A DNA stretch of 64,000 nucleotides from an uncultured Arcobacteraceae bacterium (GCA_964022095.1 CAXHZO010000010.1:1-64000), one strand, 5' to 3'. Counted from the first letter of the stretch, positions 1,983 through 47,717 are shown. A program made the numbers and translations. Notes: generated by a model from the letters alone, not told the origin.

Positions 1983-2059
1983 ATTTATCCTTTTATTAAG
2001 TTAGTATTTTATCTATTTTGCACTTCTAATATATTAAAATAACACTCTTGGAGATTTAA

Positions 2060-2620: not shown

Positions 2621-3668
2621 ATATTTCCTAAACTTTATAAAAACAACAATCTTTTTTGTTTTTTGTTTCTTAGTGTATAAATACTGGGATGATATTGGAA
2701 TATTTTTTATTGAAAATATTTTAGTAATAGATATTAGTACTGTTTTATTAGTAGGGAAAGTAACAACTAAATCAGTTGTTGCTAAAAAGACTTTTTTAAC
2801 TATTGTAAAAAAAATTGGATATAAAAAGTTTTTTGTATCTATTGTTTGGGTTATTTTAAAAAGATTTTTTATAGAACAAGTTACAAACTATTTTAAAAAG
2901 CACTCATTTGAAAGATTTAAAAACAACTTTTTAGAAGTTCTCAAGTTAAAAGCTAGTGAGATAAAAAACACTACTTTTATGAAAAAAATTGCTGCATTTT
3001 TTTACTTTTTTCTTGGTGGAACGTTTTTTTACTATATTTTGACAACATATATTGGAAAAATTATCATAGGTCTTTTACAAAAAGTATTTTATGTATTGAT
3101 TTTGTTTGCTGGAAAGTTCTTGACACTTGTATTTGGATTATCTCTTTTTATTTTTAGTTCAGTTATACAAATATTTTTTGTAATTAAAATTATAAACTAT
3201 ATTGAAAAGTTTTGGATAGTTCAACTTTTTTATTCTTTTGTTACATATATTTTTAGAAAAACATTAAAAATAGTTGATTTTATTTTTGGAACTAAAATAC
3301 ATCTAAATTTGATTAAGTTATCAAGAAGACTAGATGAATATTTTGCTTCAATATTAGATAAAAACTTCTCAGGTTTTGAAGTGATTCAAAGAAGAAGAGA
3401 TAGGTATATAAATATAATAGAGTCAATATCAGTTCAAAGAGAAAGATTTATTCTAAAAAAAGCTGAGCGAAAGCACTCAAATATCATAAAATACTACAAT
3501 CAAACACTAAAAAAATATATAAACAATAAAAAAACTTGGAGAGAAAAAAGAAAGGAATACTATAACAAAAGAACTCAAAGATATAGTGTTTTAAAAAAGA
3601 AAGTAAAAAAAGATATTAGAAAAAATAAGCTCATCCTGCCAAATAAAAGATATAAAAAGCCATACTAA
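2613..3668 (+). CDS. Hypothetical multi-pass membrane protein with basic C-terminal tail
   Basis: 351 aa ORF, TTG start overlapping the upstream gene end, several hydrophobic segments. Confidence 0.6.
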   Translation: MNKYFLNFIKTTIFFVFCFLVYKYWDDIGIFFIENILVIDISTVLLVGKVTTKSVVAKKTFLTIVKKIGYKKFFVSIVWVILKRFFIEQVTNYFKKHSFERFKNNFLEVLKLKASEIKNTTFMKKIAAFFYFFLGGTFFYYILTTYIGKIIIGLLQKVFYVLILFAGKFLTLVFGLSLFIFSSVIQIFFVIKIINYIEKFWIVQLFYSFVTYIFRKTLKIVDFIFGTKIHLNLIKLSRRLDEYFASILDKNFSGFEVIQRRRDRYINIIESISVQRERFILKKAERKHSNIIKYYNQTLKKYINNKKTWREKRKEYYNKRTQRYSVLKKKVKKDIRKNKLILPNKRYKKPY

Positions 3669-20359: not shown

Positions 20360-22042
20360 TCATTCCCCAAAAATGTTAAATAATATGATTTTCAAATCAT
20401 CTTTCATTTGGTCATTTAACTCTTTTTCATTTGAGTATAAATAAAATGGTACAGTATTTCTCATAGAGTATTTTAATCTTTTTCTAAGAGTTGAGATTTC
20501 ATCTAAATTTATTAATTCAATTCCATCATATAAATAAAACTCTTTTTCAATACCTAATCTAAAAGATACTGTTTGATAAGCAAAAAAAGTATTAGGAAGT
20601 TCATTTTCCCACTTTTTTATAAAACTATCTAATTCTTTTTGAAGTTTTTTTAATCTATTAGGAGTTATATAACCAAAGCTTTCTCTAAATTTATATCTCT
20701 CAATTGTTGTAAAGTTTAATACTTTATAAAATTCATTTAGATTTTTCCAAGGACTTCTAAATCTTCTTTTTCCAAACAAAACCTCTTCAAAGCAATACAT
20801 ATATTTGATATCTTCTTGGCTTAAGACTTTTTTATCTTTTATCTCAAAGTATTTATTTTTAAATAGTGAGATTAACCAGTTTTCATCAAGAAGTGATATT
20901 GTATCAAGCTCTTTTTGTTTGTTTTTATTTTGAAAACTCCAAAGCATTGATATATTTTCAGAAATTTTTTCACCCAATACTTGGTCATCAAAATATTTTG
21001 TTGAGAGGTATTGCACTACATTTTCAAGTAAAGTATCAGTTTTTGCAATACCATGATTGAATATCACTTTTTTGTAAAGGTTAAATCTCATCTCAAGCAT
21101 ATGTTCAATATCAATTAAACTCATATCAAAGAAGCTTAATAAAAAGTTTTTATCTTTTTTCACCAACACTGATTGTTTAGTAATTCTTATATGATCATTT
21201 GGCCCTGTTATATAACCACTTGCAAGCATATCTCTATTTATGTAATCTAATCTATCAGCATCAACTGTGCCATCTATAAAGCTATGTAATACTTTAAAGT
21301 CAAAGCCTTTGTATGTTTTTTCTTCAAGTATCAAAATAGCAAGTTCTTTTATTAGTTTTAAAAACTCTAAATCAGTATCTTTTTTTACTAAATCAAATAG
21401 CTCATACTCAAATAAAAGTTTTATATGCTCTTTCCCTATAGCTTCATGAAGTACATCTTTTCTATTATTTGTAATCTCATTATAGATACTTAAAAATTTT
21501 GCTTCTTTTTCACAAAGTGCTTTTAGCTTCTTTTCTTTTTGTTTTATTCTTTGATACACCTTTTCAAGTGCATACTCAACTTGGTGAGAAAATGGTAAAT
21601 GTCCAACATCATGAAGTAATCCTACAACTCTGATTGTTTGTAAAAAAATAGTATAAACAATTCTTTGCGATTTTGATCTTGTAGGTATTGTAAATTGATA
21701 TAGTGCTTTGTTATCAAAATACTCCATATCATCTAAATCAATATTTATATTTTTTTCTTCAAGTAGTTTTTTTATAACTTTTTTTAATGATTTTAAAAAA
21801 TCATCTTTTGTAGATTTATCAGCATTTAATAATGCATTTTTAAACATAAATGAGGCTAAGTGCATAGTCCCTAAACTATGAATAAACCTCTTGGTTGTAA
21901 TTGATGGATACGAAAAATATGCAAGGGCATTTTGAGTAATAAATTGTAATCTATTTACAATCTTAGTTTGAAGAATTTTATCTTCAAGCTTTGTATACTC
22001 AATATGATTGTAAATAGTGTCGTTTATAAGTCTATTTTGTAT
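20360..22042 (-). CDS. HD-domain dNTP triphosphohydrolase-like protein (SAMHD1/YwfO type), non-canonical ATA/ATT start
   Basis: HDVGH.PFSH and DADRLDY..RD; the frame extends 59 codons upstream of the track start and supplies NDTIYNHI...NRLQFITQ...RFIHSLG; AGGAG RBS 6 nt before ATA at 22042. Confidence 0.85.
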   Translation of the reverse strand: MQNRLINDTIYNHIEYTKLEDKILQTKIVNRLQFITQNALAYFSYPSITTKRFIHSLGTMHLASFMFKNALLNADKSTKDDFLKSLKKVIKKLLEEKNINIDLDDMEYFDNKALYQFTIPTRSKSQRIVYTIFLQTIRVVGLLHDVGHLPFSHQVEYALEKVYQRIKQKEKKLKALCEKEAKFLSIYNEITNNRKDVLHEAIGKEHIKLLFEYELFDLVKKDTDLEFLKLIKELAILILEEKTYKGFDFKVLHSFIDGTVDADRLDYINRDMLASGYITGPNDHIRITKQSVLVKKDKNFLLSFFDMSLIDIEHMLEMRFNLYKKVIFNHGIAKTDTLLENVVQYLSTKYFDDQVLGEKISENISMLWSFQNKNKQKELDTISLLDENWLISLFKNKYFEIKDKKVLSQEDIKYMYCFEEVLFGKRRFRSPWKNLNEFYKVLNFTTIERYKFRESFGYITPNRLKKLQKELDSFIKKWENELPNTFFAYQTVSFRLGIEKEFYLYDGIELINLDEISTLRKRLKYSMRNTVPFYLYSNEKELNDQMKDDLKIILFNIFGE

Positions 22043-22051
22043 AATGTTCTC

Positions 22052-23428
22052 CTAATCTTTTCTTTTTTCAAATATTCTTTCTGTAAATTGTGCAAATTTA
22101 CCTCTTACTGCTTTTTCAAGTTCAATTGCAAACATTTTTAGCTCAGGATGCTCATAGTTTGTTTGCTTTAAAAGTGTTGTTAAACCATTATTATATTTAT
22201 TTAAATAAAGGTTATCAATTTGTCTATTTGAACCAATAACAACTCCCATACAACTCTCATCAAGCCTTGATAGTATTAGTTGTGTTGTTTTTTCACTACT
22301 ATTTTGCCACTCATCCATAATAACAATTGCACTAGATAGTGTTCTACCCCTTGCTTCTCCTGGCCATAATGTTTCAATACAATATTTAGATTCAAGCTCA
22401 CTGATTTTTGATTCTATTGATTCTTGATTCTCTTTATTTTCACTTTTTTTTAGATGTTTTTTTGCAATAAACTCTAAAGTATCTTGTAATGCCATATTAT
22501 AGATTCTAAATTTTTCATCATTTCCTGCAAGATAACCAATATCTGCACCTTTATCAAGTGACTCAATAGAGTTTCTAACATAAACAATTTTATCATAATA
22601 ACCTAAATCGATAAGCCTCATAGCACTAACAATTGACATAAGAGTTTTACCACTACCTGCTTTTGCATCAATTACTAGTAAATCATACATATTCGATAGT
22701 ATTGCTTTTGTAAATAGTTTTTGTTTTAGGTTTACTGGCCTTACATTTAATGCTTTAAAATCATTTTCTTTTAATGTATCAATTCTTTTATCATGAATTA
22801 TTGCATATTGTGTATTTCCATCGGCACTTAAAAATTCATAAGAAAAGTTTTGGAATTCATACTCTTCATCAATAGTTTTAATATCTTTATTATCTAAACT
22901 ATTAAAAATCGATGAGTCTAAATCAAATTGTTTTACAAAGTTAAACTTTGGAACTGTAGATTTATCATCATGAAGAGTTTCTGCTTTTATACTTTTAAAG
23001 AGTGCAAAAGTTCTAGCATAAACATCAAGTGATAAGAAAATTGTTTGAGAACCTTTATAGTAATCTCTTGCAATACTTGCAACTTCTATTATTCTTTTAT
23101 CATTTGATTCAGAAATATGAATTTGTTCAATTTGAGTTTCATATGCATCTTTTGAAATAATATCAAGATTTATTTCATCATTAAAAAGTTTCACAACTTT
23201 AAAGCCAAGTTTATAATCTACTTCTTTAATTTTCATCTTTGCTAATAGTCTTGCAAACTCTCTTGAATAGTATCCTAGTTCATTAGTAAGTTTCTTTTTA
23301 TCCTCTAACTCAAGAAGAACTGTTTCAGGAATAACAATGTGATTAGTTTTATTGTCAGATATTCGATTTAGGTTTTGAAGATTTTGTAAGATGATATTTG
23401 TATCTACTACATATACTTTTTCTTTCAT
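22052..23428 (-). CDS. PIN-PhoH family protein
   Basis: N-terminal PIN (VVDTNI, VLLELE, ND..II, LSLD..AR) and PhoH ATPase (AGSGKT, IGYLAG, ARGRTL, MDEWQN, QIDN). Confidence 0.9.
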   Translation of the reverse strand: MKEKVYVVDTNIILQNLQNLNRISDNKTNHIVIPETVLLELEDKKKLTNELGYYSREFARLLAKMKIKEVDYKLGFKVVKLFNDEINLDIISKDAYETQIEQIHISESNDKRIIEVASIARDYYKGSQTIFLSLDVYARTFALFKSIKAETLHDDKSTVPKFNFVKQFDLDSSIFNSLDNKDIKTIDEEYEFQNFSYEFLSADGNTQYAIIHDKRIDTLKENDFKALNVRPVNLKQKLFTKAILSNMYDLLVIDAKAGSGKTLMSIVSAMRLIDLGYYDKIVYVRNSIESLDKGADIGYLAGNDEKFRIYNMALQDTLEFIAKKHLKKSENKENQESIESKISELESKYCIETLWPGEARGRTLSSAIVIMDEWQNSSEKTTQLILSRLDESCMGVVIGSNRQIDNLYLNKYNNGLTTLLKQTNYEHPELKMFAIELEKAVRGKFAQFTERIFEKRKD

Positions 23429-23521
23429 AAAAAATTGTATCATAACAATTGTTACAAATTAGATACAAGATAGTATATTTAATAGTCTATTAGATTTACT
23501 AAAAGACTTAGGATAAAAATC

Positions 23522-26139: not shown

Positions 26140-26161
26140 ATACATGGTGCGAATGGTGAGA
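26140..26161. repeat. Attachment-site direct repeat (distal copy of the tRNA-Leu 3' end)
   Basis: ATACATGGTGCGAATGGTGAGA is identical to 34117-34138. Confidence 0.95.
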
Positions 26162-26498
26162 TTTTTAAAAATAAATTTTAAAAACCATAGAACACCATAA
26201 AAAAGGACTTCTTGAAAAATAAAAAAACTAAGAGTTAGTATATTATAGTTATTTTTTGTACAGTCTTATCACAAATTTGATACTTACTATTAATTAAATT
26301 TTTTTTGAATTAAAAAAATATTATAAACTTAATGTAATCAAGATAATAATTAGTTATTGTAATAAAAATAGTTACATATAACTTTACTAAAATTCACTTA
26401 ATAAAAATACTACTTAACTATATTTCATTATTTTTAAATAACTAATTTTTAATTTTTAAAATAATACAATGGTATTTATATAATCTATTGGAGAATAA

Positions 26499-29400
26499 AT
26501 GACAATATCATTTTTACATATATCAGACTTACATTATGAATCTAGAAAATCAGAAACTTTTGAGGAATTAAGAAATAAAATTTTAAGTGTATTAAGTAAT
26601 AGCAATAAAAGTATAAATTTTATTGTTTTTTCTGGTGACTTAGTTCAAAAGCCTTTAGAAAATGAATCTAATAATGCTTTTGAGACTTTTATAGAACCAA
26701 TTATTAAACAATTTGGTTTAGATAATAATTCATTAATTTTTACTAATGGTAATCATGATGTTGATATCACTAAAAGAGATAAATATGCTTTTAGTGGTTT
26801 TTTAAATCATCTCAATAGTCCAGAAAGAAAAAATGTAATAAAAGATTTATTGAATTTTGATATAAATTTTCCTGAACACCAAGATTTTGTAGAGTTTATA
26901 GGTTCTCTAAACCAAAATATAGTTATTGAGAATAATGTGTATTATTCGACTTATAAAAAGAATGTTAATGGTGTGGAAATAGGTTTTGTCTCAATAAATT
27001 CAAGTTTATTAATGCAGACGAGTAAAAAAGATTTTGGTAATCTTTTAATTATTGAAGAAATATTAGAAAAAGCTATGAAAGATATAATCTCTACAAACAT
27101 GAAAATTCTTAATATTCATCACCCCCTTAATTGGTTTAAAAATTATAAAGAAATAGAAAAAATTATATTAGATAAATTTAATATTGTATTTTATGGACAT
27201 GAGCATGAACATGATGGTAAATATACTATTGATACATATAATAGAGATATTTTAAATTTACATGCCCAATCTATGTATCATCAATCTGACTTACCTGATG
27301 GATTTGCCATTTATGATTACAATATACATGATGAAGAAATAGAAATAACAAAATATATGTATAGTAAAGCGCATAATAATTATGACAAATTAGATACAAA
27401 TAAAATACAAAATATTGACTTACTTAAAAAATCTAAATCAATTAGAAATCAAAATATATGTACAAAAATAAAAGAACCTTTAAAAGAACATATTAATAAA
27501 TTTTTGGCAATAAATTTGACATCAGATATACAAAAAGAAGATATTGAAGAAATATATACACATCAAAAAATTACCGAAGATGATGAAAATAATTCTGATG
27601 AAAGAAAAAAACATCTTGAAATGAATGAAAAAGAATTTTCTCTTAAGGAGTTAATTGAATCTAATGATAATTTACTATTTTTAGGTAAAAAGGAAATTGG
27701 TAAGACAACTTTATTAAATAGTATTAATATTAATTACATTAGTAATTATGGTGAAAAAATCCCTATTTATATCTTATCAAGTGAATTAATTCATGAAAAG
27801 AGCGAATATATAATTTTTGCAAAAATCTCAGATTATTTAAAGAAATTTTATGGTGAGCATAAATTTAAAATTAATGATATGATAAAAGAAAAGAGATTTT
27901 TACTATTAATTGATAATATTCAATACTTAGAAAATGAAATGGTTGATAAGTTGCTATCTTTTGAAAATCAAATTTTTGCAACATACAGAATTAAAGATTA
28001 TGACAATATTTATTCAAAACTTAATCATTTTAATTTAAAAAGTAATAGTTTAAACAAGTTTAAGAAACTCAAGATACATCCCTTTAGACAAAAAGATAGT
28101 AATGAACTTACAAAAAAAATTGTTCCAATAGAAACATCTAAGCAAATTTCATCTAATGTAAAAAAAGCAATGAATAAATTAAGTTTGCCATCAAATCCTT
28201 TTTTAACTACATTATTAATATGGATGTATAGAGATAAAATTGAAATAAAGGATAGTGAACCAGAAATAATTGAAGTACTTTTAGATTATTTACTAGAAAA
28301 ATCTGATGTAAAAAGAAATTTTGATTCAAGAATTAATTTTGAGAACAAAAAAAATATATTATCTGCAATTGCTTATAAATTTTATGAACAAAAAAGTTTA
28401 TCTTTAGATGAAAATATAATTTTAGAAACAATTATTACTTATATAAAAACATATTTTGCTTTTCAAATTAATGCAAAAGATATATTAGACTATTTTTATG
28501 ATAGAAGAATTTTTATATGTAATTTAGGACAAATACAATTTACATATAGAGTCTTTTATTATTACTTTATTTCTCTATTTATGATAAAAAATAATGATTT
28601 TTATAAGACAATTTTTGATAATGAGTTATTAATTACAAATATGCATGATGAACTTAAATTTTATTCAGCATTAAAAAATGATGATTTGTCTGCAATTAGT
28701 AAAATCGAAAATATTATTAGTAAATCCATATTTAACAAAAAATTAAAAAAAGTTAATATTGAATTACCTATGAATTATACTTTTACTATCAATGATTTGG
28801 GAGAATTACATCCTAAACAAACTATAAGTGAAGAAAATGAATCTGAAGATTTAGAAATAAAAATATCAAATGATGAAAAAGACTTCATTGATAAAATTGA
28901 TTCAATAAACACTGATCATAGAGAAAATCATATTGAAAGGTTTAATAATGAAAACGAGTTGGTAAGTATATTTCTCCAAAATAAAGAAGAATATTTTGTT
29001 TTAAATTTAATTTATTCTGAATTTATTAAAAATTTAACAAATGTTAATGTAAAAATACAGAATGAATATGTTGTGAATTCAATTAGAAATATAAGTAATA
29101 TTACAAGATATTGGTTTTCTAAAATTAATGATGAAGAAGTAAGTCAAAGATTTTTAAATAGAAAAGTAAAGGAATTTAAAATTGATTTAGATTTAAAAAG
29201 AATTGTTGATTTAAAAGAACTTATAAAATCAAATATTTTAGCTATTTTTACAGAAGTAATAGAAATTAGTTTGTGTACACCAACTATGATAGAAATTTAC
29301 AAAGAGAATTATAATAAATCAGATGATATTTTCCTTAAATACTATTTTTTAATATTTATTATTGAAACTGATGAAGAAAACATTTTTCTAGAATACATAA

Positions 29401-29639
29401 AGTCTTTTATTAAACATTCAAAAATGAATAAAACTTTTATATATATTTTGTATGGAAAACTTGTTCATGATTTTGTTAATAAGAATTTTTCTTCAAAAAC
29501 AAAAAATGAGATTAAGAGTATTTTGATTTATCTTGAATTAAATCTAAATTCAGCTATAAATGATAGTTCAGGTACTAATAAATCAATAGCTAAAAACAAA
29601 GTAGAAAATGACTTAAAAATAAAAAAAATGTTAAGTTAA
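26499..29639 (+). CDS. Calcineurin-like metallophosphoesterase fused to a STAND/NACHT-like NTPase (putative anti-phage NLR-like protein)
   Basis: LHISDLH, FSGDL, GNHD, HHP, GHEH phosphoesterase motifs; Walker A GKKEIGKT, Walker B LLLIDN, LPSNPF; long helical C-terminus. Confidence 0.85.
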   Translation: MTISFLHISDLHYESRKSETFEELRNKILSVLSNSNKSINFIVFSGDLVQKPLENESNNAFETFIEPIIKQFGLDNNSLIFTNGNHDVDITKRDKYAFSGFLNHLNSPERKNVIKDLLNFDINFPEHQDFVEFIGSLNQNIVIENNVYYSTYKKNVNGVEIGFVSINSSLLMQTSKKDFGNLLIIEEILEKAMKDIISTNMKILNIHHPLNWFKNYKEIEKIILDKFNIVFYGHEHEHDGKYTIDTYNRDILNLHAQSMYHQSDLPDGFAIYDYNIHDEEIEITKYMYSKAHNNYDKLDTNKIQNIDLLKKSKSIRNQNICTKIKEPLKEHINKFLAINLTSDIQKEDIEEIYTHQKITEDDENNSDERKKHLEMNEKEFSLKELIESNDNLLFLGKKEIGKTTLLNSININYISNYGEKIPIYILSSELIHEKSEYIIFAKISDYLKKFYGEHKFKINDMIKEKRFLLLIDNIQYLENEMVDKLLSFENQIFATYRIKDYDNIYSKLNHFNLKSNSLNKFKKLKIHPFRQKDSNELTKKIVPIETSKQISSNVKKAMNKLSLPSNPFLTTLLIWMYRDKIEIKDSEPEIIEVLLDYLLEKSDVKRNFDSRINFENKKNILSAIAYKFYEQKSLSLDENIILETIITYIKTYFAFQINAKDILDYFYDRRIFICNLGQIQFTYRVFYYYFISLFMIKNNDFYKTIFDNELLITNMHDELKFYSALKNDDLSAISKIENIISKSIFNKKLKKVNIELPMNYTFTINDLGELHPKQTISEENESEDLEIKISNDEKDFIDKIDSINTDHRENHIERFNNENELVSIFLQNKEEYFVLNLIYSEFIKNLTNVNVKIQNEYVVNSIRNISNITRYWFSKINDEEVSQRFLNRKVKEFKIDLDLKRIVDLKELIKSNILAIFTEVIEISLCTPTMIEIYKENYNKSDDIFLKYYFLIFIIETDEENIFLEYIKSFIKHSKMNKTFIYILYGKLVHDFVNKNFSSKTKNEIKSILIYLELNLNSAINDSSGTNKSIAKNKVENDLKIKKMLS

Positions 29640-29655
29640 TTATTATAATTATAGT

Positions 29656-30651
29656 ATGAATAAATTATCAATAGAAAACACATTACTAGAATTCAATAAT
29701 GAAATTAAAAAAACTGGAAGTATTGAAAAGGCATTTGTAAATTATCTTAATGAACAATTTAAAGAATTTGATGGATTAATTGATTATGAGAATTACAAAA
29801 AACAGATATTTGGCCAATTTAAAACATCTCAAACTTTACATTTAATTTTCTCAAAAAAAGAAATTCATAATACTTTGGCTAATACTTTATCTCAATATGA
29901 TTATGAATTTCTAGATGAACAAATAGAAGTATTTAATTATTTAGTTCAATATGATAAAGCTTGTATAATTGATGATCAAAAAAAATATTACAGATTAAAT
30001 ACACTCTTATGTAAAGTATTTGAACACTTAGAAGCTTTAGAAAAATGGCATGAGCTTGAAAAATCAGAAGATATACTAAAAAAAGGAATAGCTAGAACTC
30101 CTCATCCTATTGTTTCAGATGCTATTAAACCAAGAATAAAAACGATAAATGATTCTTTAGAATTAAATCCTATACAATCAAATGAAATAATGTTAAATAT
30201 CTATAATGAGTTTGAGAGTAATCCTTTAGAAATAACTGCTATGTATAATTCATTGCAGCATTTAAAAAAAGAAAATTTCTTAATTGATGAAAAGCAAAAT
30301 TTAGAAACTTTATTTAATCAACAAACTTTTTTAAACTCTGCAAAAATACTGGAAGATACACATATCTTTAATAGTTGTAAAATTACATCATATTTATTAT
30401 ATAAAGAAAAAACTATTATTGATTTATCCTTACAATTAAATAAACATATCCCTTATACTCAATTATCAAAATATATGAATACTCTAATAGATTCTTTTTT
30501 TGATTATGAATATAAATCTAATTTATCTAAAAAACATATTGAAAAAGAAGTCCAATTAAAAACACATTTTAATAATTTAGAAATACTAGAATTTAGAACT
30601 AAAATGAACTATCAAGAACATCCTATATTTAATGATATTAAATTTGGCTAG
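29656..30651 (+). CDS. Hypothetical protein of the integrative element
   Basis: 331 aa ORF 16 bp after the STAND gene; no motif recognised. Confidence 0.75.
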   Translation: MNKLSIENTLLEFNNEIKKTGSIEKAFVNYLNEQFKEFDGLIDYENYKKQIFGQFKTSQTLHLIFSKKEIHNTLANTLSQYDYEFLDEQIEVFNYLVQYDKACIIDDQKKYYRLNTLLCKVFEHLEALEKWHELEKSEDILKKGIARTPHPIVSDAIKPRIKTINDSLELNPIQSNEIMLNIYNEFESNPLEITAMYNSLQHLKKENFLIDEKQNLETLFNQQTFLNSAKILEDTHIFNSCKITSYLLYKEKTIIDLSLQLNKHIPYTQLSKYMNTLIDSFFDYEYKSNLSKKHIEKEVQLKTHFNNLEILEFRTKMNYQEHPIFNDIKFG

Positions 30652-30763
30652 TGACTCACTAGTTAAATTAACTATCTAATAAAATCTATTTCATATAAAC
30701 TTCCCTTATCGATATCGAATAAAACAAAGAGCTCTTTGTAAATTAAATTACAAAGGATTAAAA

Positions 30764-31027
30764 ATGATTACATTAAAAGGTCATTTACTAAATATTATTC
30801 CAAAAACGGAATATAAAAAAGATGGAGAAAATTTAGCAACTCCAGTAAAAGCTAAACTACAAATTTTAGTAGAAAATAAAAGAGCAAATGGAGTCTTAGT
30901 TAAAGACTTACATACTATTTCTATTCCTGATGAAAAGATTCTTATGTACAAAGATAAGATAGGTAAAGAAGTAAGTGTAGAAGTTGGAATTATGTCAAAA
31001 GATAAAATTAGTTTCTATGGTGTCTAA
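30764..31027 (+). CDS. Putative OB-fold single-stranded DNA-binding protein
   Basis: 87 aa, beta-strand-rich pattern, AAGGA RBS, directly upstream of a rolling-circle Rep; function inferred from size and context. Confidence 0.5.
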   Translation: MITLKGHLLNIIPKTEYKKDGENLATPVKAKLQILVENKRANGVLVKDLHTISIPDEKILMYKDKIGKEVSVEVGIMSKDKISFYGV

Positions 31028-31119
31028 AGAAGAAAAAAGACTTATTGTAAGGCTACTTACAAAAAGTTTTTTTCTTCTTTGACAATTAAAAAATAAGGGG
31101 TTTATAGTAACACCCCTTA
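31021..31119. other. Twin hairpins; candidate double-strand origin / nick site
   Basis: 64-nt near-perfect hairpin (31021-31084) and TAAGGGGT-ttatagtaac-ACCCCTTA hairpin (31094-31119) immediately before rep. Confidence 0.6.
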
Positions 31120-31143
31120 CTAAACGTCAAAGAAAGGATAAAG

Positions 31144-32513
31144 ATGAATGAAGTTAAAAAAATCTTCGGTATAGATTCACTTTATTACTTCTGTGAATCA
31201 AATGATGATTATGATGATTTGTATCTAGAAATATTAGACCAAATAGAAGATATTAAAGGTAAATACCAAAAGAAAGAAATTGAGTTTGAAAATAGAGATA
31301 TTACTATTAAAGTAAATGATGTACCTTTACACTTTCTTGGTAAAGCTGAAGGATATCATTGGTTTGTAGATACTAATGAATATTTTAAAATAGGTTTTAA
31401 AGATAAATACAAAAATAGAGGTTTAAATGATATTAGAGTTCAACTTCTTGGAGTTGGTATTTATTCAATAGGAATAAAATCACTAATTGAGTTTATAAAT
31501 AAAGAATTACTAAAAGAGTATGTAACTGGATACTTTCCAATTACTAGAGCAGATTTAAACTGTTTTATACAATATGACTTTAGCTTTGTAACTAAAGAGA
31601 TGTTTGTATCTAAAAAAAAGAAATATTCAACTATTAGTGAAATAGGTAGTTCAACTACAACACAAACTTTGTATGTAGGAAAAGAGCCATTTAAACTAAG
31701 ACTTTATAATAAAAAAGAAGAGTTAAAAAAGTCAAAGAAAAAAAATTTGATGTATGAATACTTTTCAAATCATGGATTTGATTTAGAAGATGAAATATTT
31801 AATGTTGAATTTGAAATACATAGAACTCATATAAAACTATTTGGAATAGATTCATTAGATGATTTCTTTAAACATGCAGTTAGATTATTTCAATTTAGTA
31901 TGAATGATATAAGACTAATAGATATTAATTCATTAAGTGATAATGCAGTAGAGCATAACAATAAAAGAAGAGCAGATACTTTACCAATATGGGATGAGAT
32001 ACAAAGAGAGTTTAATTTAAAAGAATTTTTACAATCTTCTTTACCATTAGAAAGAATTAAAAGAAAAATATCTATTTATGATGATAATAAGTTTGAATAT
32101 GAGTTTATAGTTTTAATTAGAAAAGCAATAATAAATGATTTAAATCTAGATAGAGACTATTTAAACCATTTATATGAAAAAGGAAAAGATAGTTTAAAAA
32201 GACTACTACACCAAAGCAATTAAAACAAGATTATATAGATATAGAGTTTGTACATGAAGATGGAAAAGTAGAGAAATATAGACAATTAGATAATGGAGAG
32301 ATAATTAAACCATTAAGAACTTTAACTGTAGCAAAACTGAGTGATTATGATTTACATAGATATTTAGAAAAAGTTACCCAAGTTCAACACTTATCTACTA
32401 GAAACAAACATATATTTGAGGTAGCTTATAAAGAGGCTATGCATAGAGGATTAATTCCTAGTATTAATCCTACTGAATCATTAGAAGATGAAGAAGATAG
32501 GCTAGATTTTTGA
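31144..32513 (+). CDS. Rep_trans-like rolling-circle initiator/relaxase, interrupted by a -1 frameshift near 32193-32200
   Basis: GIDSL, TRADL, TLYVG...RLYNK, NVEFE motifs in 31144-32223; a further 104 sense codons follow in the -1 frame (32199-32510, TGA at 32511-32513). Confidence 0.75.
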
Positions 32514-32593
32514 TACTTTTTTAAAAAGTATATACAGACATAAGGGAATTTATTTCCCTTGCTTAAACAGATTATGAAAGGAGTGTAAAAACA

Positions 32594-32899
32594 ATGGAAA
32601 TATCATTTGAGAATTTAAAAAAAATTGACACTATATTAGAAAAATTAGAACTACTAGAAAATAAAGTAACTAGTGAAAAAAGGTGGCTTAATACAAAAGA
32701 AGCTTCACATTATTTAGGTTATTCACAAGACCATATACACAAACTAAAAGAGAATTATTTTATTGAAAGTAAACACTATTTTAAAAAAGCTGGAAGAATT
32801 TTATTTGATAAACTAGAACTTGATATATGGGTTAAAAACTCATATTGTGAAGTTAATCCAGGTCAAATCGTAGATTCTATATTGAAGGATTTAAAATGA
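32594..32899 (+). CDS. Excisionase-like HTH (HTH_17/MerR-type) protein
   Basis: WLNTKEASHYLGYS...ILFDK.ELD.W; directly upstream of the integrase. Confidence 0.82.
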   Translation: MEISFENLKKIDTILEKLELLENKVTSEKRWLNTKEASHYLGYSQDHIHKLKENYFIESKHYFKKAGRILFDKLELDIWVKNSYCEVNPGQIVDSILKDLK

Positions 32900-32962
32900 T
32901 TTTTAGTAAAATAAAAAGTTCAAGAAGTTCATTTTTATTGGTGTTTTTTCTAAGGAGAAAAC

Positions 32963-34048
32963 ATGATTAATATGACACAACCAAAAATTTACACTAGAGG
33001 TAATAAACTTTGGGTAAATTTCAGTTTTGAGGGAAAATATATTAGAAAGTCTTTAAATTTAGAAGACAACAAAACTAATAGAAAACTTGCCCAAAACCAA
33101 ATAATTCCACAATTGATATTAAAAATATATAGTGGAGAGTTCTTTGAAAAAAATATTGTTCCCATTTTAAATGAATATTCTAGTGTTTCTTTTGAGCAAC
33201 ATAGACATGAAAGAAAGATTACAACTAATACGGACTATCAAAATATTTACAATAAGCATATCAAACCAACTTTTGGAAATAGAAAGCTTGATAAGATTAG
33301 AGTTAGTGAAGTTAATATTTGGAAAAATAAACTTTATAAAGAACTTGGACTTTCTTCAAAGAGAGTAAATGATATTAAAAAGATATTTTGTACTATATTA
33401 GAAGATGCAGTAAGAGATGAAATTATAGTTTCTAATCCCGTTTCAAAGTCTAGACCACTTCCAGTTCATCAAGAAAAAGAGATTCATCCTTTTTCTTTAG
33501 AAGAAATAAAACTTATTATAAATACTGCAAAAGGTCAGGATAAGAATTTGATAGCAACTCTTTTTATGACTGGTATGAGAACAGGAGAGCTAATAGGTCT
33601 TAAATGGAAAGATATAGATTTTGATAAAAGAGAAATTTCAATAAGTCGAACTATTGGTAGAGGTATTGAAGGTACTCCAAAAACTATGTCAAGTTATAGA
33701 ACTATTCCTATTTTAGATTCTTTATATCCATATTTAGTAAATCAATATACTTTGACTTCAGAAGAAAATACTTATGTATTTTTGAATGATAAAGGAAATC
33801 ACTATTTTGATTCTAAAAATATTAGAGCAGGGCTTTGGAAAAAAATTTTAAAACATTCAGGTGTTAAGTATAGAACGGTTTATCATACTAGACATACTTT
33901 TTGTTCTATTAACTTACAAAATGGAGAAGATATTATTTGGATATCAAAAGTTTTAGGACATAAAAATCCTAGAGTTACATTAGAAAAATATTCAAAATAT
34001 ATTCCTACAAATGGAAACAAAAAAACAATTTTTGATAGTTTAAATTAG
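32963..34048 (+). CDS. Tyrosine recombinase / integrase
   Basis: TGMRTGE (R), PKT (K), HTRHTF (HxxR), LGH, EKY catalytic motifs; ends about 70 bp before att. Confidence 0.96.
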   Translation: MINMTQPKIYTRGNKLWVNFSFEGKYIRKSLNLEDNKTNRKLAQNQIIPQLILKIYSGEFFEKNIVPILNEYSSVSFEQHRHERKITTNTDYQNIYNKHIKPTFGNRKLDKIRVSEVNIWKNKLYKELGLSSKRVNDIKKIFCTILEDAVRDEIIVSNPVSKSRPLPVHQEKEIHPFSLEEIKLIINTAKGQDKNLIATLFMTGMRTGELIGLKWKDIDFDKREISISRTIGRGIEGTPKTMSSYRTIPILDSLYPYLVNQYTLTSEENTYVFLNDKGNHYFDSKNIRAGLWKKILKHSGVKYRTVYHTRHTFCSINLQNGEDIIWISKVLGHKNPRVTLEKYSKYIPTNGNKKTIFDSLN

Positions 34049-34116
34049 TACTCGTACAATTTTATCACAGTTGAAAAATTTTACTATTGAAAAGCCGTTG
34101 TATCGGGGATTAAAAG

Positions 34117-34138
34117 ATACATGGTGCGAATGGTGAGA
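34117..34138. repeat. Attachment-site direct repeat overlapping the tRNA-Leu 3' end
   Basis: Identical to 26140-26161. Confidence 0.95.
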
Positions 34139-34208
34139 ATCGAACTCACACTCCGAAACCGGAATGGGATTTTAAGTCCCACGCGTCTACCTATTCCGCC
34201 ACACTCGC
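34122..34208 (-). tRNA. tRNA-Leu(TAA)
   Basis: GCGAGTG...TGGGA-CTTAAAA-TCCCA anticodon arm, long variable arm, GTTCGATT, encoded CCA. Confidence 0.97.
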
Positions 34209-44372: not shown

Positions 44373-46217
44373 TTAGTTATTAAAAACTCTTCTTGTTCCA
44401 TCTTTTTTAATATCAGAAAAGTTATCTAAATAGTCTAAATAGGCTATTAGATATTTTCTACTTAGTTCAAATTTATCTTTTAAATTTGATATTTCTATAA
44501 AGCCTTCATTTTTGATGATATCTTTCATTATTTTTACCATTTTATTTAGGCTTTCAAAATGTATAAAAATATTGTGTTGTAGTCTTATAACTTGTTTTTT
44601 TGATGTAAGTGATTTAAGTACATTATCTCCAAGTTTTCTATCGATATCTAAATCATCGTAGATATTATACGGTGCAGTTGGTGCTATGTCTTCTTTTTTT
44701 AGTCTTTCTAAAACTATATTTTGTAGATCTTTTTTTATATCTTCTTTTATGATGGCATTTTGATATAAGTTCGTATCAAACTTTAAAAATCCTTCATTTA
44801 CTAGTTCATCAAGTACAATTTGAATAAAATTTTTACTAGCCCATTTTAATCGTAAGTTAATAGCTGCATTTGAAAGTAGGGCATAGTTGTTTTTTATATA
44901 GATGTCTTTGATATAGTTTTTTACAATCTCTTTTGTATCTACAGGATAGATAATTAAAGCATCTTCATCTACAAAAACATTTTCAAGCTTTTTTGCAAAC
45001 TCTATAGCATCACTATGGCTTAGTGCAAATCTTTGTGTTGAAGAGATGATTCCAAGACCTTTTTTATGAGCATTTAATAACTCTTCATAAGCCTTTACAA
45101 AATCTTTTTTATCTAAAGCTTCTAATAGAGCTTTCTTTTGATGTTTTCTCATAGGATCAATCACTGGATTTAAAACACTTCCACCACAAATAGTGTCATT
45201 TCCCCTTCTAAGTATTATTTTCTCTCCAAAGATTGTATATAGTTTTTCTTCTGCTTTAATAGTGGCAAATCCATTTGATGCTTTATCTGTAGTATCAAAT
45301 AGTAAAACTTTTACTTCAATTTTCTTTGCACCTATAAAAAGTGAATATGTTTGATTATGTTTTAACTCTTTGTTTTTTAAACACTTAAAAGAGATATCAA
45401 TACCATCAAAACCTCTTACGAAACCTTTTTTAGTAATTAGGTCACCTTTTCTAACTTGGTTTACATTTATACCTTGTAAGTTTAAGGCAGCTCTATTTGA
45501 GATATTTGCCTCTAAGACATTGTTATTGTGTACTTGGATATTTTTTAGTTTTGTTTCTTTTTGAGCTTGAGCTATAAATACTTTTTCATTTAACTCACAA
45601 GCTTTTCCTAAAACAGTACCAGTTACAACTGTACCAATACCTTTAGGAGAGAAAACTCTATCTACATAATATCTAAAGAAATTCTCAGGTTCTTTAGTCG
45701 ATTTTTTTATACTAAATAGCTGTTTTTTTAAATCACTAATTGATTTTTCATCATAAATAGAAACTTCACTTATAAATTTAACTTCAAAATCATAAGCACT
45801 TAAAAACTCTAAAATAGAATTTTTTTGAGATACTAATTGTTCTTTATTTACTAAGTCTTTTTTTGTAAGAACTACAATAATCTCTTTTAATCCTAAAAGA
45901 TTTATGATTTCTATGTGCTCAACTGTTTGGGGCATGATACCCTCAGATGCACTTATAACTAACATCACATAATCAAAGCCAAAAGCACCTGCAATCATAT
46001 TTTTCACTAACTTCTCATGTCCTGGAACATCAATGAAAGCTATGTTTTGATTATCTTTACTTAGATTTGAAAAAGATAAATCTATAGTGATACCTCTTTT
46101 TTGCTCTTCATCTGTACTATCCCCTTCAAAACCATTTAAAGCTTTGATAAGTGCAGTTTTACCATGGTCAATATGTCCTGCTGTTCCTATGATGATATTT
46201 GTACTCATATCTGACAT
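44373..46217 (-). CDS. selB: Selenocysteine-specific elongation factor SelB
   Basis: GTAGHIDHGKT, RGITIDL, DVPGHE, TKKD; C-terminal SRKYLI..LDYLD winged helix. Confidence 0.96.
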   Translation of the reverse strand: MSDMSTNIIIGTAGHIDHGKTALIKALNGFEGDSTDEEQKRGITIDLSFSNLSKDNQNIAFIDVPGHEKLVKNMIAGAFGFDYVMLVISASEGIMPQTVEHIEIINLLGLKEIIVVLTKKDLVNKEQLVSQKNSILEFLSAYDFEVKFISEVSIYDEKSISDLKKQLFSIKKSTKEPENFFRYYVDRVFSPKGIGTVVTGTVLGKACELNEKVFIAQAQKETKLKNIQVHNNNVLEANISNRAALNLQGINVNQVRKGDLITKKGFVRGFDGIDISFKCLKNKELKHNQTYSLFIGAKKIEVKVLLFDTTDKASNGFATIKAEEKLYTIFGEKIILRRGNDTICGGSVLNPVIDPMRKHQKKALLEALDKKDFVKAYEELLNAHKKGLGIISSTQRFALSHSDAIEFAKKLENVFVDEDALIIYPVDTKEIVKNYIKDIYIKNNYALLSNAAINLRLKWASKNFIQIVLDELVNEGFLKFDTNLYQNAIIKEDIKKDLQNIVLERLKKEDIAPTAPYNIYDDLDIDRKLGDNVLKSLTSKKQVIRLQHNIFIHFESLNKMVKIMKDIIKNEGFIEISNLKDKFELSRKYLIAYLDYLDNFSDIKKDGTRRVFNN

Positions 46218-47563
46218 TAGTTAAATACCTTTTTGATAATCTGCTCTATACTATCTATTTCATGTTCACCTATAGTTCTAAAATCTAATAGGACTTTGTC
46301 ATTTTCTATTCTTGTGATTAGGTTTTGTTCTCTTAGAAGTTTTTCTATTTTGTTTGGTTTGTAGTTTTTGTATTCTAAACTAAGTGCGATAGATGGTATT
46401 TTTTTATTTGGAGTAGTGCCTCCTCCTACCATAGTACTCGTTTCTATAACTTCACAACTACATAGAGTATCAAGTCTTTGTTTTAATATGTTTGCTCTTT
46501 GTGATAGTGTTTGTGTGCTTGTATGAAGCATTTTTAAAGTAGGGATTGAGTCTAGCTCATCTTTTAAGTATGAGTTTAGAGTATCTTCTAAGATTGAAAG
46601 AGTGATTTTATCAACTCTTAGCATTCGTAAGAGTTGGTTTTTTTTGATTTTTTCAATTAGTTCTTTTTTACCTATGATAATCCCAGCTTGTACACTTCCT
46701 AGAAGTTTATCCCCTGAAAAACTTAGAAGTGAAGGATTGTATTTCATGATTTCTTTTATAGATGGTTCATTTTTATTTAGGTTATATGGTAGATCTATCA
46801 TGTGACCACTTCCCATATCGTAGTAGTCTATTACATCATTTTCTTTTGCAACTTTTACTACATCTTCAAAATCAACTTCACTACTAAAACCTTCAATTGA
46901 ATAGTTTGATTTGTGTACTTTCATCAGCATTGAAGTGTCTTCACAAATGGCATTTTCATAATCCCTTAGATGGGTTTTATTTGTAGTTCCGATTTCTTTT
47001 AGTATTGCTCCACTTTGAGTCATCACTTCAGGAACTCTAAAACTCCCACCAATCTCCACAAGTTCACCACGACTTACAACTGCTTGCTTGCCTTTACAAA
47101 AAGTATTTAGTATCAAAAACACTGCACTTGCGTTATTGTTTACTACTATGGCATCTTCACAACCTGTTAGGGCTTGAAGTGTTTTTACTATGTGTGAGTA
47201 TCGCTCACCTCTTTTGCCTTTTTCTAAGTCATATTCTAAGTTGTTGTATGATGTAGCTATATTGATAGCTTTATTTAGTGAGTCTTTGTTTATAAGACTT
47301 CTTCCAAGGTTTGTATGTACTATGATACCAGTTGCATTTATCACACTTTGAAGTGATGGAGAGATTTGATTTTCATACTCTTTTATAGTTTGATTTATAA
47401 GTGCTTGTTCATCTATAGAGTTTATGTTGTTATTCAAAATATCAGTTCTAAGGTTTTCTATGATTTGTTTAGAGATTTTTTTGATGAGAGATTTTGAATA
47501 TCCATCAAAAGCTTTGTTATTGATAAACTTATCAATCTTTGGAATGGATTTTAGTAAAGTCAT
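46217..47563 (-). CDS. selA: L-seryl-tRNA(Sec) selenium transferase SelA
   Basis: VINATG.IVHTNLGRS, VNNNA.AV, SRGELVEIGGSFRVP, FSGDKLLG; true start MTLLKSIP at 47563. Confidence 0.96.
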   Translation of the reverse strand: MTLLKSIPKIDKFINNKAFDGYSKSLIKKISKQIIENLRTDILNNNINSIDEQALINQTIKEYENQISPSLQSVINATGIIVHTNLGRSLINKDSLNKAINIATSYNNLEYDLEKGKRGERYSHIVKTLQALTGCEDAIVVNNNASAVFLILNTFCKGKQAVVSRGELVEIGGSFRVPEVMTQSGAILKEIGTTNKTHLRDYENAICEDTSMLMKVHKSNYSIEGFSSEVDFEDVVKVAKENDVIDYYDMGSGHMIDLPYNLNKNEPSIKEIMKYNPSLLSFSGDKLLGSVQAGIIIGKKELIEKIKKNQLLRMLRVDKITLSILEDTLNSYLKDELDSIPTLKMLHTSTQTLSQRANILKQRLDTLCSCEVIETSTMVGGGTTPNKKIPSIALSLEYKNYKPNKIEKLLREQNLITRIENDKVLLDFRTIGEHEIDSIEQIIKKVFN

Positions 47564-47618
47564 TTTGACCCTTTTATTAATATTTAAAATGTATTGTTGT
47601 AAAATCAAATTCTTAAAT

Positions 47619-47717
47619 GGGAGATATGTGTACCTGGTGGGCACCACAGGCTTCAACCCTGATTGAGAGAATATGTGTATATTCTCTGGGAGGTTCGATT
47701 CCTTCATCTTCTCGCCA
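47619..47717 (+). tRNA. selC: tRNA-Sec(TCA)
   Basis: CAGG-CTTCAAC-CCTG anticodon arm, TGGT D-loop, 9-bp variable stem, GGAGG-TTCGATT-CCTTC T arm, GCCA end; divergent from selA. Confidence 0.95.

Follow-up and report, generated by a model that had tools for sequence, protein, structure and literature searches.

The window analysed here, a stretch of 64,000 nucleotides from an uncultured Arcobacteraceae bacterium, contains one long gene (P0001) whose product joins a calcineurin-like phosphoesterase to a P-loop NTPase. The question raised by this locus is whether that one protein serves as an NLR-like immune receptor, and how far it differs from systems already described.

Architecture and conservation of P0001

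The gene and the parts of its product are listed below.

26499..29639, plus strand: P0001 gene, 1046 aa, metallophosphoesterase with NACHT-like STAND module and putative helical sensor; PDC-S60 / DS-8-like
26499..27428, plus strand: putative phosphoesterase effector domain, calcineurin-like, aa 1-310; beta-sandwich in the AlphaFold2 model, five metal motifs, PDB profile matches to Rv0805/Icc/SbcD
27429..27638, plus strand: helical linker, aa 311-380, in the AlphaFold2 model; 364-374 of low confidence
27639..28688, plus strand: P-loop STAND NTPase module, NACHT-like, aa 381-730; Walker A at 396-403, Walker B at 468-473, helical and winged-helix parts
28689..29636, plus strand: presumed sensor, aa 731-1046; low-confidence loop 760-784 and all-helical C-terminal domain 791-1046 in the AlphaFold2 model

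The ORF starts with ATG, has GGAG 7 nt upstream, and is intact within DNA of 19-21% G+C. A regular-expression search found all five metal motifs of the phosphoesterase superfamily (DxH / GD / GNH(D/E) / H / GHxH), each once and in canonical order: D10-L-H12, G46-D47, G84-N85-H86-D87, H207/H208, and G233-H234-E-H236. Walker A (G396KKEIGKT403) and Walker B (L468LLID472-N473) likewise occurred once each in canonical order, and agreed with the GxxxxGK[ST] and hhhhD patterns of NACHT-clade STAND proteins. In a 57-sequence family alignment, D10, H12, G46, D47, G84, N85, H86, H207, G233, H234, H236, G396, G401, and D472 were invariant, and position 402 was lysine in 55 of the 57. These results bore out the preliminary description, made from the sequence alone, in its reading of an N-terminal calcineurin-like phosphoesterase with five metal motifs. 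The asparagine following D472 was considered as a sign of a degenerate Walker B (D-N), and this was rejected, since position 473 is N in 28/57 and D in 26/57 family members and N is therefore a normal state of the family. Mean identity to close homologues was 32.7% in the C-terminus versus 45-50% in the head and NTPase, and the C-terminus is thus the least conserved part of the protein, with sensor-like variability. In this AT-rich DNA, scans for promoters and terminators were uninformative: 54 promoter-like sites were counted where shuffled sequences predict 73.6, and the single terminator-like site lay on the opposite strand to the gene.

The AlphaFold2 model of P0001, a confident one (pLDDT 84.5, pTM 0.72), passes into the helical linker beyond residue ~310. 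Pfam gave only sub-threshold matches on P0001 itself (AAA_14, 14.7 bits; Metallophos_2, 14.1 bits), with no match to NACHT (PF05729) at E <= 0.1. PF05729 fell slightly short of its gathering score of 26.7 on two relatives, P0042 (22.5 bits) and L051 (25.1 bits), and exceeded it on the more distant P0061 (55.1 bits). Homologues of P0001 matched Metallophos (PF00149) and nSTAND_NTPase4 above threshold; the latter fell at the equivalent of P0001 634-689 (35.6 bits on P0009), so that Pfam places the winged-helix part of the homologues in nSTAND_NTPase4. A PDB profile match to NLRC4 covered residues 359-646 (E 2.3e-7), Foldseek with the model returned NLRP3, NOD2, and NLRC4 at E 1e-9 to 4e-8, and VIA-align of NLRC4 against residues 310-919 gave Z 19.4 with 416 residues aligned at an rmsd of 5.7. 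The predicted NBD-helical-winged-helix fold of the NTPase module thus resembles solved NLRs, and the central P-loop NTPase (GKKEIGKT / LLLIDN) described earlier was confirmed at 396-403 and 468-473. Of the helical C-terminus of ~400 aa in the same description, the helical character held in the model and the length did not, as ~320 aa lie beyond the NTPase module.

The head was compared with known metallophosphoesterases using VIA-align. By far the best structural match was Bacillus subtilis YydB (9a6c_B; Z 29.2, rmsd 2.9 A, 292 aligned, 22% identity), spanning 1-310 of the P0001 model and 1-318 of the chain, with a Foldseek E of 1e-12; PDB 9a6c chain B is part of an integrative model of YydD-YydB and not an experimental structure. 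Unlike P0001, YydB is a separate protein of 481 aa, complexed with YydD and carrying no NTPase fusion. The yydBCD genes form a Rok-silenced region of B. subtilis (PMC8894471). Purple acid phosphatase, Rv0805, SMPDL3A, and GpdQ followed at Z 19-21, where SMPDL3A (20.1-20.5) was tied with purple acid phosphatase and Rv0805 (20.7), and Mre11/SbcD scored lower (Z 16-17). Profile comparison gave E 8e-7 to Rv0805, a cNMP phosphodiesterase, and E 1.8e-4 to SbcD-like chains. The fold and the five metal-binding motifs are common to the P0001 head, class III cNMP phosphodiesterases, GpdQ, SMPDL3A, purple acid phosphatases, and Mre11-SbcD; unlike in those enzymes, the phosphoesterase domain of P0001 is the head of a STAND protein. 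Reading the substrate of P0001 from its fold was rejected, since several subfamilies tie at Z 19-21 and no single one stands out from which a substrate could be transferred.

P0001 belongs to a catalogued family and is related to DS-8

PADLOC had been proposed as a check in the preliminary description, and when it was run, P0001 matched PDC-S60 over its full length (PDLC05051, E 2e-79, 265.9 bits, 5-1035 of P0001 to 3-1020 of the 1027-position model). Close and distant homologues matched PDLC05051 at 281-387 bits, which places P0001 at the low end. At E <= 1e-3 the PDC-S60 family numbers 2433 representatives. No other PADLOC model matched P0001 at E <= 0.1, and this would include Avs and bNACHT if PADLOC holds such models; we presume that PADLOC-DB does contain models for Avs. 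We take the label PDC to denote a defence candidate by genomic association only, and a full-text literature search for the name PDC-S60 found no paper. The single-gene status of P0001 fits that of PDC-S60, with no conserved partner gene. P0001 belongs to an already catalogued candidate anti-phage family.

The second match was to NCBIfam DS8_antiphage (NF053861), the model for DefensePredictor-discovered system 8 (DS-8; PMC13092281, Science 2026). As described in that paper, DS-8 is a single-protein system that protected E. coli from phages when cloned alone, and its defence was abolished by two metallophosphatase mutants and by a NACHT mutant (PMC13092281). The model aligned with P0001 collinearly from end to end (7-1009 of P0001 to 1-992 of 994, E 1.5e-46), at a score of 158.7 bits that did not reach the equivalog cut-off of 790 bits. 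Two equivalogs within the same order as P0001 scored 950 (L051) and 892 bits (L052), and 46 of 47 other representatives of the P0001 family scored 166-245 bits. Across the phylum, 10 of the 401 genomes contained matches to the DS-8 model.

We further compared P0001 with true DS-8 equivalogs directly. Using hhalign, the P0001 clade aligned with two over-cut-off equivalogs at 99.8% probability over 655 columns (residues 1-722), and BLASTP against one equivalog gave only 27% identity over residues 1-413; neither method aligned the last ~320 residues of P0001. Like DS-8, P0001 is one protein of ~1000-1050 aa with a metallophosphatase, a NACHT-type NTPase, and a helical C-terminus in the same order, and it keeps the residue classes that DS-8 requires, both in the metal site (D10, H12, D47, N85, H86, H207, H234, H236) and in the P-loop (K402). 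Unlike DS-8, it is of the PDLC05051 type throughout, whereas DS-8 equivalogs combine an 05051-type head with a PDLC05050-type body. That NTPase-sensor body (DS-8 model ~285-993, PDLC05050) also carries a trypsin-like head in one relative (L053) and TIR heads in two others (L055, L056). These alignments indicate that the head, linker, and NTPase module of P0001 are homologous to those of DS-8 equivalogs, and that P0001 is a distant relative of DS-8, not an equivalog. Because the C-terminal ~320 residues could not be aligned, the function of DS-8 is not simply transferable to P0001, and the comparison suggests that the trigger of P0001 probably differs from that of DS-8.

P0001 also resembles bNACHT and Avs STAND proteins in its effector-NTPase-sensor layout, its NACHT-like fold, and the swappable N-terminal heads of its relatives. 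Comparative genomics had previously described STAND/NACHT proteins with calcineurin-like phosphoesterases as heads (PMC8195603), as had the bNACHT preprint (bioRxiv 10.1101/2022.07.19.500537), whose supplementary discussion groups calcineurin-like phosphoesterases with effectors that generate or degrade nucleotide signals. Of the two earlier statements on novelty, the first, that the protein was not recognised as a named system, was overturned by the full-length PDC-S60 match and the collinear DS8_antiphage match. By the second, the protein would lose its novelty if it strongly matched a characterised system, and this largely came true with PDC-S60 and DS-8, apart from the distance of P0001 from the DS-8 equivalogs.

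P0001 is the cargo of a small island at a tRNA-Leu gene

The gene had also been described as the main cargo of a mobile element. The features that delimit and accompany it are as follows.

26140..26161, no strand assigned: left island end and att site, a 22-nt direct repeat duplicating the tRNA-Leu 3' end; exact 22-mer, spacing 7977
29656..30651, plus strand: P0002, 331 aa, conserved island-backbone protein
30764..31027, plus strand: 87-aa backbone ORF, kept in 6/7 related islands and in L021; no family match
31144..32223, plus strand: 359-aa backbone ORF, kept in 7/7 related islands; possible Rep_trans-type rolling-circle initiator, as a lead only
32594..32899, plus strand: HTH_17 / excisionase-like protein, 101 aa; Pfam HTH_17 at 20.4 bits (below cut-off), PHROG 66 excisionase/regulator at E 1.2e-4
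32963..34048, plus strand: tyrosine integrase, 361 aa; Phage_integrase, Phage_int_SAM_3, Arm-DNA-bind_2, PHROG 1 at E 3.7e-60
34117..34138, no strand assigned: right island end, 22-nt repeat over the 3' end of tRNA-Leu(taa) (34122-34208, minus strand)

The island measures 7977 bp, with the integrase and the excisionase-like HTH protein at the tRNA end. A same-genus genome (G156) lacks it, so that only 108 bp separate the tRNA cluster from the histidine-kinase gene on the other flank, and this empty site placed the island junction at the left repeat. P0001 is the sole cargo of this minimal integrative island, and related islands hold other, mostly unknown, cargo in the same slot. The att repeats, the integrase, and the empty site all upheld the earlier reading of the gene as mobile cargo. 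The 359-aa backbone protein had no Pfam or PHROG match itself; in the ESM Atlas it resembled inovirus-like clusters and had a feature score of 0.97 to one cluster with PF02486 in 21% of its members.

The gene immediately downstream, P0002, had been considered as a possible part of the system. Searches of Pfam, PADLOC, NCBIfam, and PHROGs did not assign it to a family, its best ESM Atlas score was 0.87 (lead-level only), and its confident model (pLDDT 90.7) gave a best PDB match of Z 6.1 and no BFVD match at E <= 0.001. Homologues of P0002 occurred in 14 of 183 related genomes without the P0001 family, versus 1 of 183 for P0001, and were missing from 9 of the 10 loci of P0001 relatives in which 1 kb or more of sequence follows the gene. 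P0002 was therefore rejected as a partner of P0001 and assigned to the island backbone.

Distribution and neighbourhoods of relatives

The distribution of P0001 is sporadic: of the 183 other species in the family, one carries it. Loci of relatives were retrieved with a 24-sequence close-clade alignment, as the broad 57-sequence alignment held no conserved stretch, so the set covers close relatives only: 12 loci with homologues of 36-43% identity to P0001. One of the 12 (L021) is an island of the same type, with the same backbone. Other loci carried a type II REase with two D12 methyltransferases and an integrase (L023); Tiamat TmtA (1.2e-297; L024); a GmrSD-like protein, the DRT-associated DUF1848, and three toxin/antitoxin-family ORFs (ParE, BrnT, CopG antitoxin; L026); NERD and RelB/YafQ (L028); and mad8, Fic, and a transposase (L031). 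Around the relative at L020 only housekeeping genes were seen. PADLOC matched 6 of 9 hand-picked neighbour proteins, and the defence-island enrichment of P0001 relatives is qualitative, carrying no statistic, because just these nine were put to PADLOC. Viral contigs searched with close-clade patterns held no relative. A tblastn search of plasmids with P0001 returned 21 records, annotated merely as "metallophosphoesterase" and 13 of them on conjugative plasmids; none of the 21 covered at least 80% of P0001, and the best had 26.5% identity over 70%.

Proposed function of P0001 and alternatives

Together, the PDC-S60 match, the DS-8 homology, the NACHT-like fold, and the TIR and trypsin heads of relatives support the proposal, already put forward in the preliminary description, of a single-gene NLR-like receptor with a phosphoesterase effector. 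With a probability of roughly 0.75, we consider P0001 to be an NLR-like sensor that acts as a single protein against phages (or mobile elements), belongs to the PDC-S60 family as a distant relative of DS-8, and was acquired with the island. In this mechanism the fast-evolving helical C-terminus would recognise an invader-derived trigger, upon which the NACHT-like NTPase would bind nucleotide and drive oligomerisation. The N-terminal binuclear metallophosphoesterase domains, brought together, might then be switched on by proximity, and the active enzyme would cleave its phosphoester substrate, thereby aborting or blocking the infection. As to that substrate, the nucleotide pool or a cofactor is the guess that we favour, at somewhat less than even odds; nucleic acid is a possible guess that we rank below it, a signalling nucleotide an improbable one, and anything else a long shot.

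An alternative is that the phosphoesterase erases a signal, degrading a nucleotide second messenger, cyclic or linear and of phage or host origin, so that protection comes from rewired signalling and not from abortive infection. SMPDL3A and Rv0805 are among the best solved matches of the head, the bNACHT preprint's classification of such heads points the same way, and a cyclic-nucleotide or signal-eraser role has been suggested in print for DS-8 itself (PMC13092281), although that paper calls the DS-8 target unknown. However, SMPDL3A is not distinct from purple acid phosphatase, Rv0805, and GpdQ, and the YydB model matches far better than any of them. Signal erasure would also depend on a partner pathway, and at the loci of relatives no gene was conserved as a partner, whereas TIR and trypsin heads on the same body, in single genes, fit interchangeable killing or depleting effectors better. 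We therefore regard signal erasure as improbable.

Even less likely, in our judgement, is that P0001 mainly benefits the island, by stabilisation or addiction or by exclusion of competing mobile elements or a helper phage. Such a role would agree with the fact that this minimal integrative element carries nothing else as cargo, with the different cargo in the same slot of related islands, and with the resemblance of the 359-aa protein to Rep_trans initiators and inovirus-like clusters. Yet most homologues lie off this island type, the architecture is that of a sensor-effector and not of a toxin-antitoxin pair, and the related DS-8 is reported to protect E. coli when cloned alone (PMC13092281); moreover, a benefit to the island overlaps with anti-phage sensing instead of excluding it. 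The relative among housekeeping genes at L020 could instead point to a non-immune protein, either a phosphatase or nuclease with a regulated housekeeping role, or a relic that has lost its activity. This is very improbable, given an ORF that is intact in DNA so poor in G+C, with every catalytic and P-loop residue conserved, the rarity of P0001 among related species and its absence from a same-genus genome at an otherwise conserved site, and membership of a catalogued defence-associated family with one validated relative, DS-8.

Significance of the proposed anti-phage sensor assignment

P0001 is probably a genuine defence gene, though a fairly ordinary one, since its family is already catalogued, it is a relative of DS-8, and it is the cargo of a small tRNA-gene island. 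It leaves the picture of bacterial NLR-like immunity unchanged. With it, the DS-8 / PDC-S60 family of phosphoesterase-NACHT proteins gains a divergent clade in Campylobacterota, and the gene is seen to travel alone as cargo on a minimal island that integrates at a tRNA gene. We further put forward, as a speculative proposal that is more apt to fail than to hold, that this clade joins the DS-8 head and NTPase to an unalignable sensor, and so maybe to a new trigger, and that the phosphoesterase, rather than erasing cyclic nucleotides as proposed for DS-8, is a killing or depleting effector that attacks a bulk nucleotide, a cofactor, or nucleic acid. The TIR and trypsin heads on the same body argue for the phosphoesterase being an interchangeable toxic effector. 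If this were true, the substrate would represent new effector chemistry for NLR-like immunity. Structurally, the head comes closest to YydB rather than to SMPDL3A, and under the same proposal this strong likeness would mark B. subtilis yydBCD as a split relative.

Conserved anatomy of P0001

The open reading frame at 26499-29639 (+) encoded a 1046-aa protein (P0001) with an ATG start and GGAG seven bases 5' of it, in DNA of about 19-21% G+C. A motif scan of the protein found each diagnostic motif once and in canonical order. The position and motifs given in the preliminary description were confirmed; the observation was real and the reading of P0001 good. An AlphaFold2 model with a 57-row alignment as input was confident (pLDDT 84.5, pTM 0.72). 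The residues and modelled parts of P0001 were as follows.

D10-L-H12, metal motif 1
G46-D47, metal motif 2
G84-N85-H86-D87, metal motif 3
H207/H208, metal motif 4
G233-H234-E-H236, metal motif 5
G396KKEIGKT403, Walker A
L468LLID472-N473, Walker B
Residues 1-310, phosphoesterase beta-sandwich (model)
Between phosphoesterase and NTPase, helical linker (model)
Residues ~381-730, P-loop NTPase with helical and winged-helix parts (model)
Residues 760-784, low-confidence loop (model)
Residues 791-1046, all-helical C-terminus (model)

The alignment held 57 near full-length family members picked from homology-search matches. Across them D10, H12, G46, D47, G84, N85, H86, H207, G233, H234, H236, G396, G401 and D472 did not vary, and position 402 was lysine in 55. 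The residue after the Walker B aspartate was N in 28/57 and D in 26/57; a Walker B defect at N473 was rejected, since N is a normal state of the family. Pfam gave two sub-threshold matches on P0001 itself (AAA_14 and Metallophos_2), and Metallophos and nSTAND_NTPase4 above threshold on its homologues. Within the close clade, mean identity was 50.3% in the NTPase and 45.2% in the head but 32.7% in the C-terminal helical domain, the least conserved part, and this low C-terminal conservation would fit a sensor under diversifying pressure.

Profile comparison with PDB sequences matched the NTPase region to NLRC4 (E 2.3e-7, residues 359-646) and the head to Rv0805, Icc and SbcD. Foldseek on the model returned the NACHT modules of NLRP3, NOD2, NLRC4 and NAIP5 (E 1e-9 to 1e-6), and VIA-align placed NLRC4 onto residues 310-919 with Z 19.4. 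The best VIA-align match to the head, by a wide margin, was Bacillus subtilis YydB (PDB 9a6c chain B, from an integrative YydD-YydB model; Z 29.2, rmsd 2.9 Å, 292 aligned), followed by purple acid phosphatase, Rv0805, SMPDL3A and GpdQ, tied at Z 19-21, and by Mre11/SbcD at Z 16-17. As four subfamilies tied behind YydB, the modelled fold does not name a substrate, and the SMPDL3A likeness emphasised for the published anti-phage system DS-8 appears real but not specific; the nearest structural relative of this head is YydB, not SMPDL3A. The DS-8 family model also matched in a B. subtilis control genome. The yydBCD region is described as Rok-silenced (PMC8894471) and is presumably foreign; yydBCD may be a split relative of the phosphoesterase-NACHT kind of system.

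Family membership and relation to DS-8

The preliminary description had not recognised P0001 as a named system, a view that gave way to database matches. PADLOC assigned it to one family, the candidate defence family PDC-S60 (model PDLC05051, end to end, E 2e-79), and NCBIfam DS8_antiphage (NF053861) matched collinearly, residues 7-1009 to model positions 1-992 of 994, at 158.7 bits, below the curated cut-off of 790. A DS9_1 match was restricted to the head. P0001 thus belongs to an already catalogued family with a validated relative. The DefensePredictor paper (PMC13092281) validated DS-8 among other systems and describes a metallophosphatase and a NACHT domain in a single protein, loss of defence in two metallophosphatase mutants and one NACHT mutant, and an enzyme target given as not known.

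An exhaustive search collected 2433 cluster representatives with E values up to 1e-3 and 173 with values up to 1e-30; they were mainly 1000-1100 aa long and aligned across most of their length. The DS-8 model scored 166-245 bits on 46 of the 47 representatives tested, yet none reached the cut-off, so DS-8 proper is a narrow clade inside a broad family. Among 401 genomes searched across the phylum, two had true equivalogs, both in the same order as the window genome (L051, 950 bits; L052, 892 bits). BLASTP aligned P0001 with the L051 protein at 27% identity over residues 1-413, and the P0001-clade profile aligned with the two-equivalog profile over 655 columns, spanning residues 1-722, with a probability of 99.8%, leaving the last ~320 residues of P0001 unaligned to L051 and L052. 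PDC-S60 comprises two PADLOC models. P0001 and its relatives are PDLC05051 throughout, whereas the equivalogs join a 05051-type head to a PDLC05050-type body. P0001 represents a divergent Campylobacterota clade with a C-terminus that did not align to DS-8 equivalogs. The L051 equivalog was flanked by an integrase and a DUF2971/PDC-S31 protein (L051:39-923 (-), L051:4660-5379 (+)).

The DS-8 model also matched ORFs aligning only from model position ~285 onward (to ~993). Three, from other genomes of the order, all matched the body model PDLC05050.

L053:1450-4848 (-), trypsin-like head, 1132 aa
L055:1129-3576 (+), TIR head, 815 aa
L056:1102-3564 (+), TIR head, 820 aa

Trypsin-like and TIR heads on one NTPase-sensor body follow the way in which STAND defence proteins exchange effectors. 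These comparisons establish that heads are swapped, and that the head and NTPase of P0001 are homologous to those of DS-8 equivalogs. Calcineurin-like heads on STAND/NACHT proteins were listed earlier by comparative genomics (PMC8195603) and also in bioRxiv 10.1101/2022.07.19.500537.

An island at tRNA-Leu with changing cargo

P0001 is carried as cargo on a small island, in agreement with the preliminary description; an exact 22-nt direct repeat of att type, with a spacing of 7977, marks the island ends.

26140-26161, left repeat copy, island end
34117-34138, right repeat copy, over the 3' end of tRNA-Leu(taa)

Genes for a tyrosine integrase and for an HTH protein resembling excisionases lay next to the tRNA, and the chromosomal flanks held signalling and housekeeping genes. 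In G156, from the one other species in the genus, the site was empty, with 108 bp between the tRNA cluster and the end of the histidine-kinase gene that lies before the island in the window. Of 183 other species in the family, one had a P0001 homologue, in two pieces on different short contigs.

The next gene, P0002 (29656-30651 (+), 331 aa), begins 17 bp past the P0001 stop codon, a gap that invites a two-gene reading. P0002 homologues occurred in 14/183 related genomes. Seven fetched loci had the common order P0002-orf87-orf359-HTH-integrase (orf87 in 6/7, orf359 in 7/7, HTH and integrase each in 6/7), and a phosphoesterase-STAND gene was found in 0/7. Conversely, among 12 loci encoding P0001 homologues at 36-43%, ten extended 1 kb or more downstream, and a P0002 homologue was present in one of these, a Sulfurimonas MAG (L021) with the whole island backbone. 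P0002 was therefore rejected as a partner and assigned to the backbone. Its model was confident and mostly helical (pLDDT 90.7, pTM 0.89), identity ranged from 86 to 23% across 19 homologues, and no family (Pfam, PADLOC, NCBIfam, PHROGs) or fold match was obtained (best structural Z 6.1).

Across this family of ~8-kb integrative islands (window 26140-34138, L044-L050 and L021) the slot upstream of P0002 held different cargo in each island, and may be a source of candidate defence genes. The minimal tRNA-Leu island of the window carries P0001 alone as cargo; in related islands the cargo is different.

Cargo upstream of P0002 in related islands
L050, PDC-M60A/B/C and PDC-S31
L045, Mrr-like protein
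L044, 882-aa protein of no known family
L048, 963- and 541-aa proteins of no known family
Remaining islands, small proteins of no known family

PDC-S31 thus recurred, in L050 (L050:13072-13695 (+)) and in the L051 flank. The backbone protein orf359 (31144-32223, 359 aa) matched an ESM Atlas cluster at 0.97, with Rep_trans in 21% of members, and also clusters holding inovirus-type (Hofneiviricota) members; Pfam and PHROGs gave no match.

Neighbourhoods and proposed mechanism

The surroundings of the 12 P0001 homologues comprised 89 non-nested ORFs, of which 71 were put to Pfam after leaving out the homologues and one overlapping ORF; six of nine hand-picked neighbours matched in PADLOC.

Recognised conflict genes beside P0001 homologues
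L023, integrase, type II REase, two D12 methyltransferases
L024, Tiamat TmtA (E 1.2e-297), DUF4365/TPR protein
L026, GmrSD-like protein, DRT-associated DUF1848 protein, ParE, BrnT and CopG-antitoxin ORFs
L031, mad8, Fic, Mutator transposase
L028, NERD, RelB/YafQ
L029, PIN
L027, CI-type repressor

The metagenomic L027 homologue was split in two ORFs, 352-1620 (422 aa) and 1714-3507 (597 aa), and is a broken or frameshifted copy. Plasmids searched by tblastn gave 21 records with partial matches at 20-27%, annotated 'metallophosphoesterase', 13 of them conjugative; viral contigs searched with close-clade patterns gave no P0001 relative.

We consider P0001 most likely (probability about 0.75) a single-protein NLR-like sensor with a trigger-driven phosphoesterase effector. 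In this scheme an invader-derived trigger would be bound by the C-terminal helical domain; nucleotide binding and oligomerisation of the NACHT-like module would follow, after which the clustered heads would become active and hydrolyse a phosphoester substrate. Anatomy, conserved catalytic and P-loop residues, family membership and mobility were established here for P0001 and its family; protection that requires both enzymatic centres was reported for DS-8 only (PMC13092281), and the remaining steps for P0001 draw on analogy with STAND immunity. Rivals to this reading are a signal eraser, a role that serves the element, and a gene that is dead or has no part in immunity. The neighbours of the L020 homologue were housekeeping only, and the conflict genes near other relatives are qualitative support for defence, not an enrichment statistic.

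As to what the effector might do, an eraser of signals has been floated for DS-8. This is unlikely for P0001, in that the head swaps with TIR and trypsin heads in genes without a conserved partner, which favours an effector that depletes or degrades. Its target would tentatively be nucleotides or cofactors, with nucleic acid a slightly weaker candidate.

Other observations in the window

Upstream of the island and outside it, 20360-23443 encoded two proteins, a PIN-PhoH fusion of 463 aa and one of 501 aa whose match to an HD domain was weak. A tRNA-SeC (anticodon tca) was predicted at 47619-47713 (+), where it overlaps an ORF on the minus strand (46217-47707) at the ORF's 5' end, and the genome probably uses selenocysteine.
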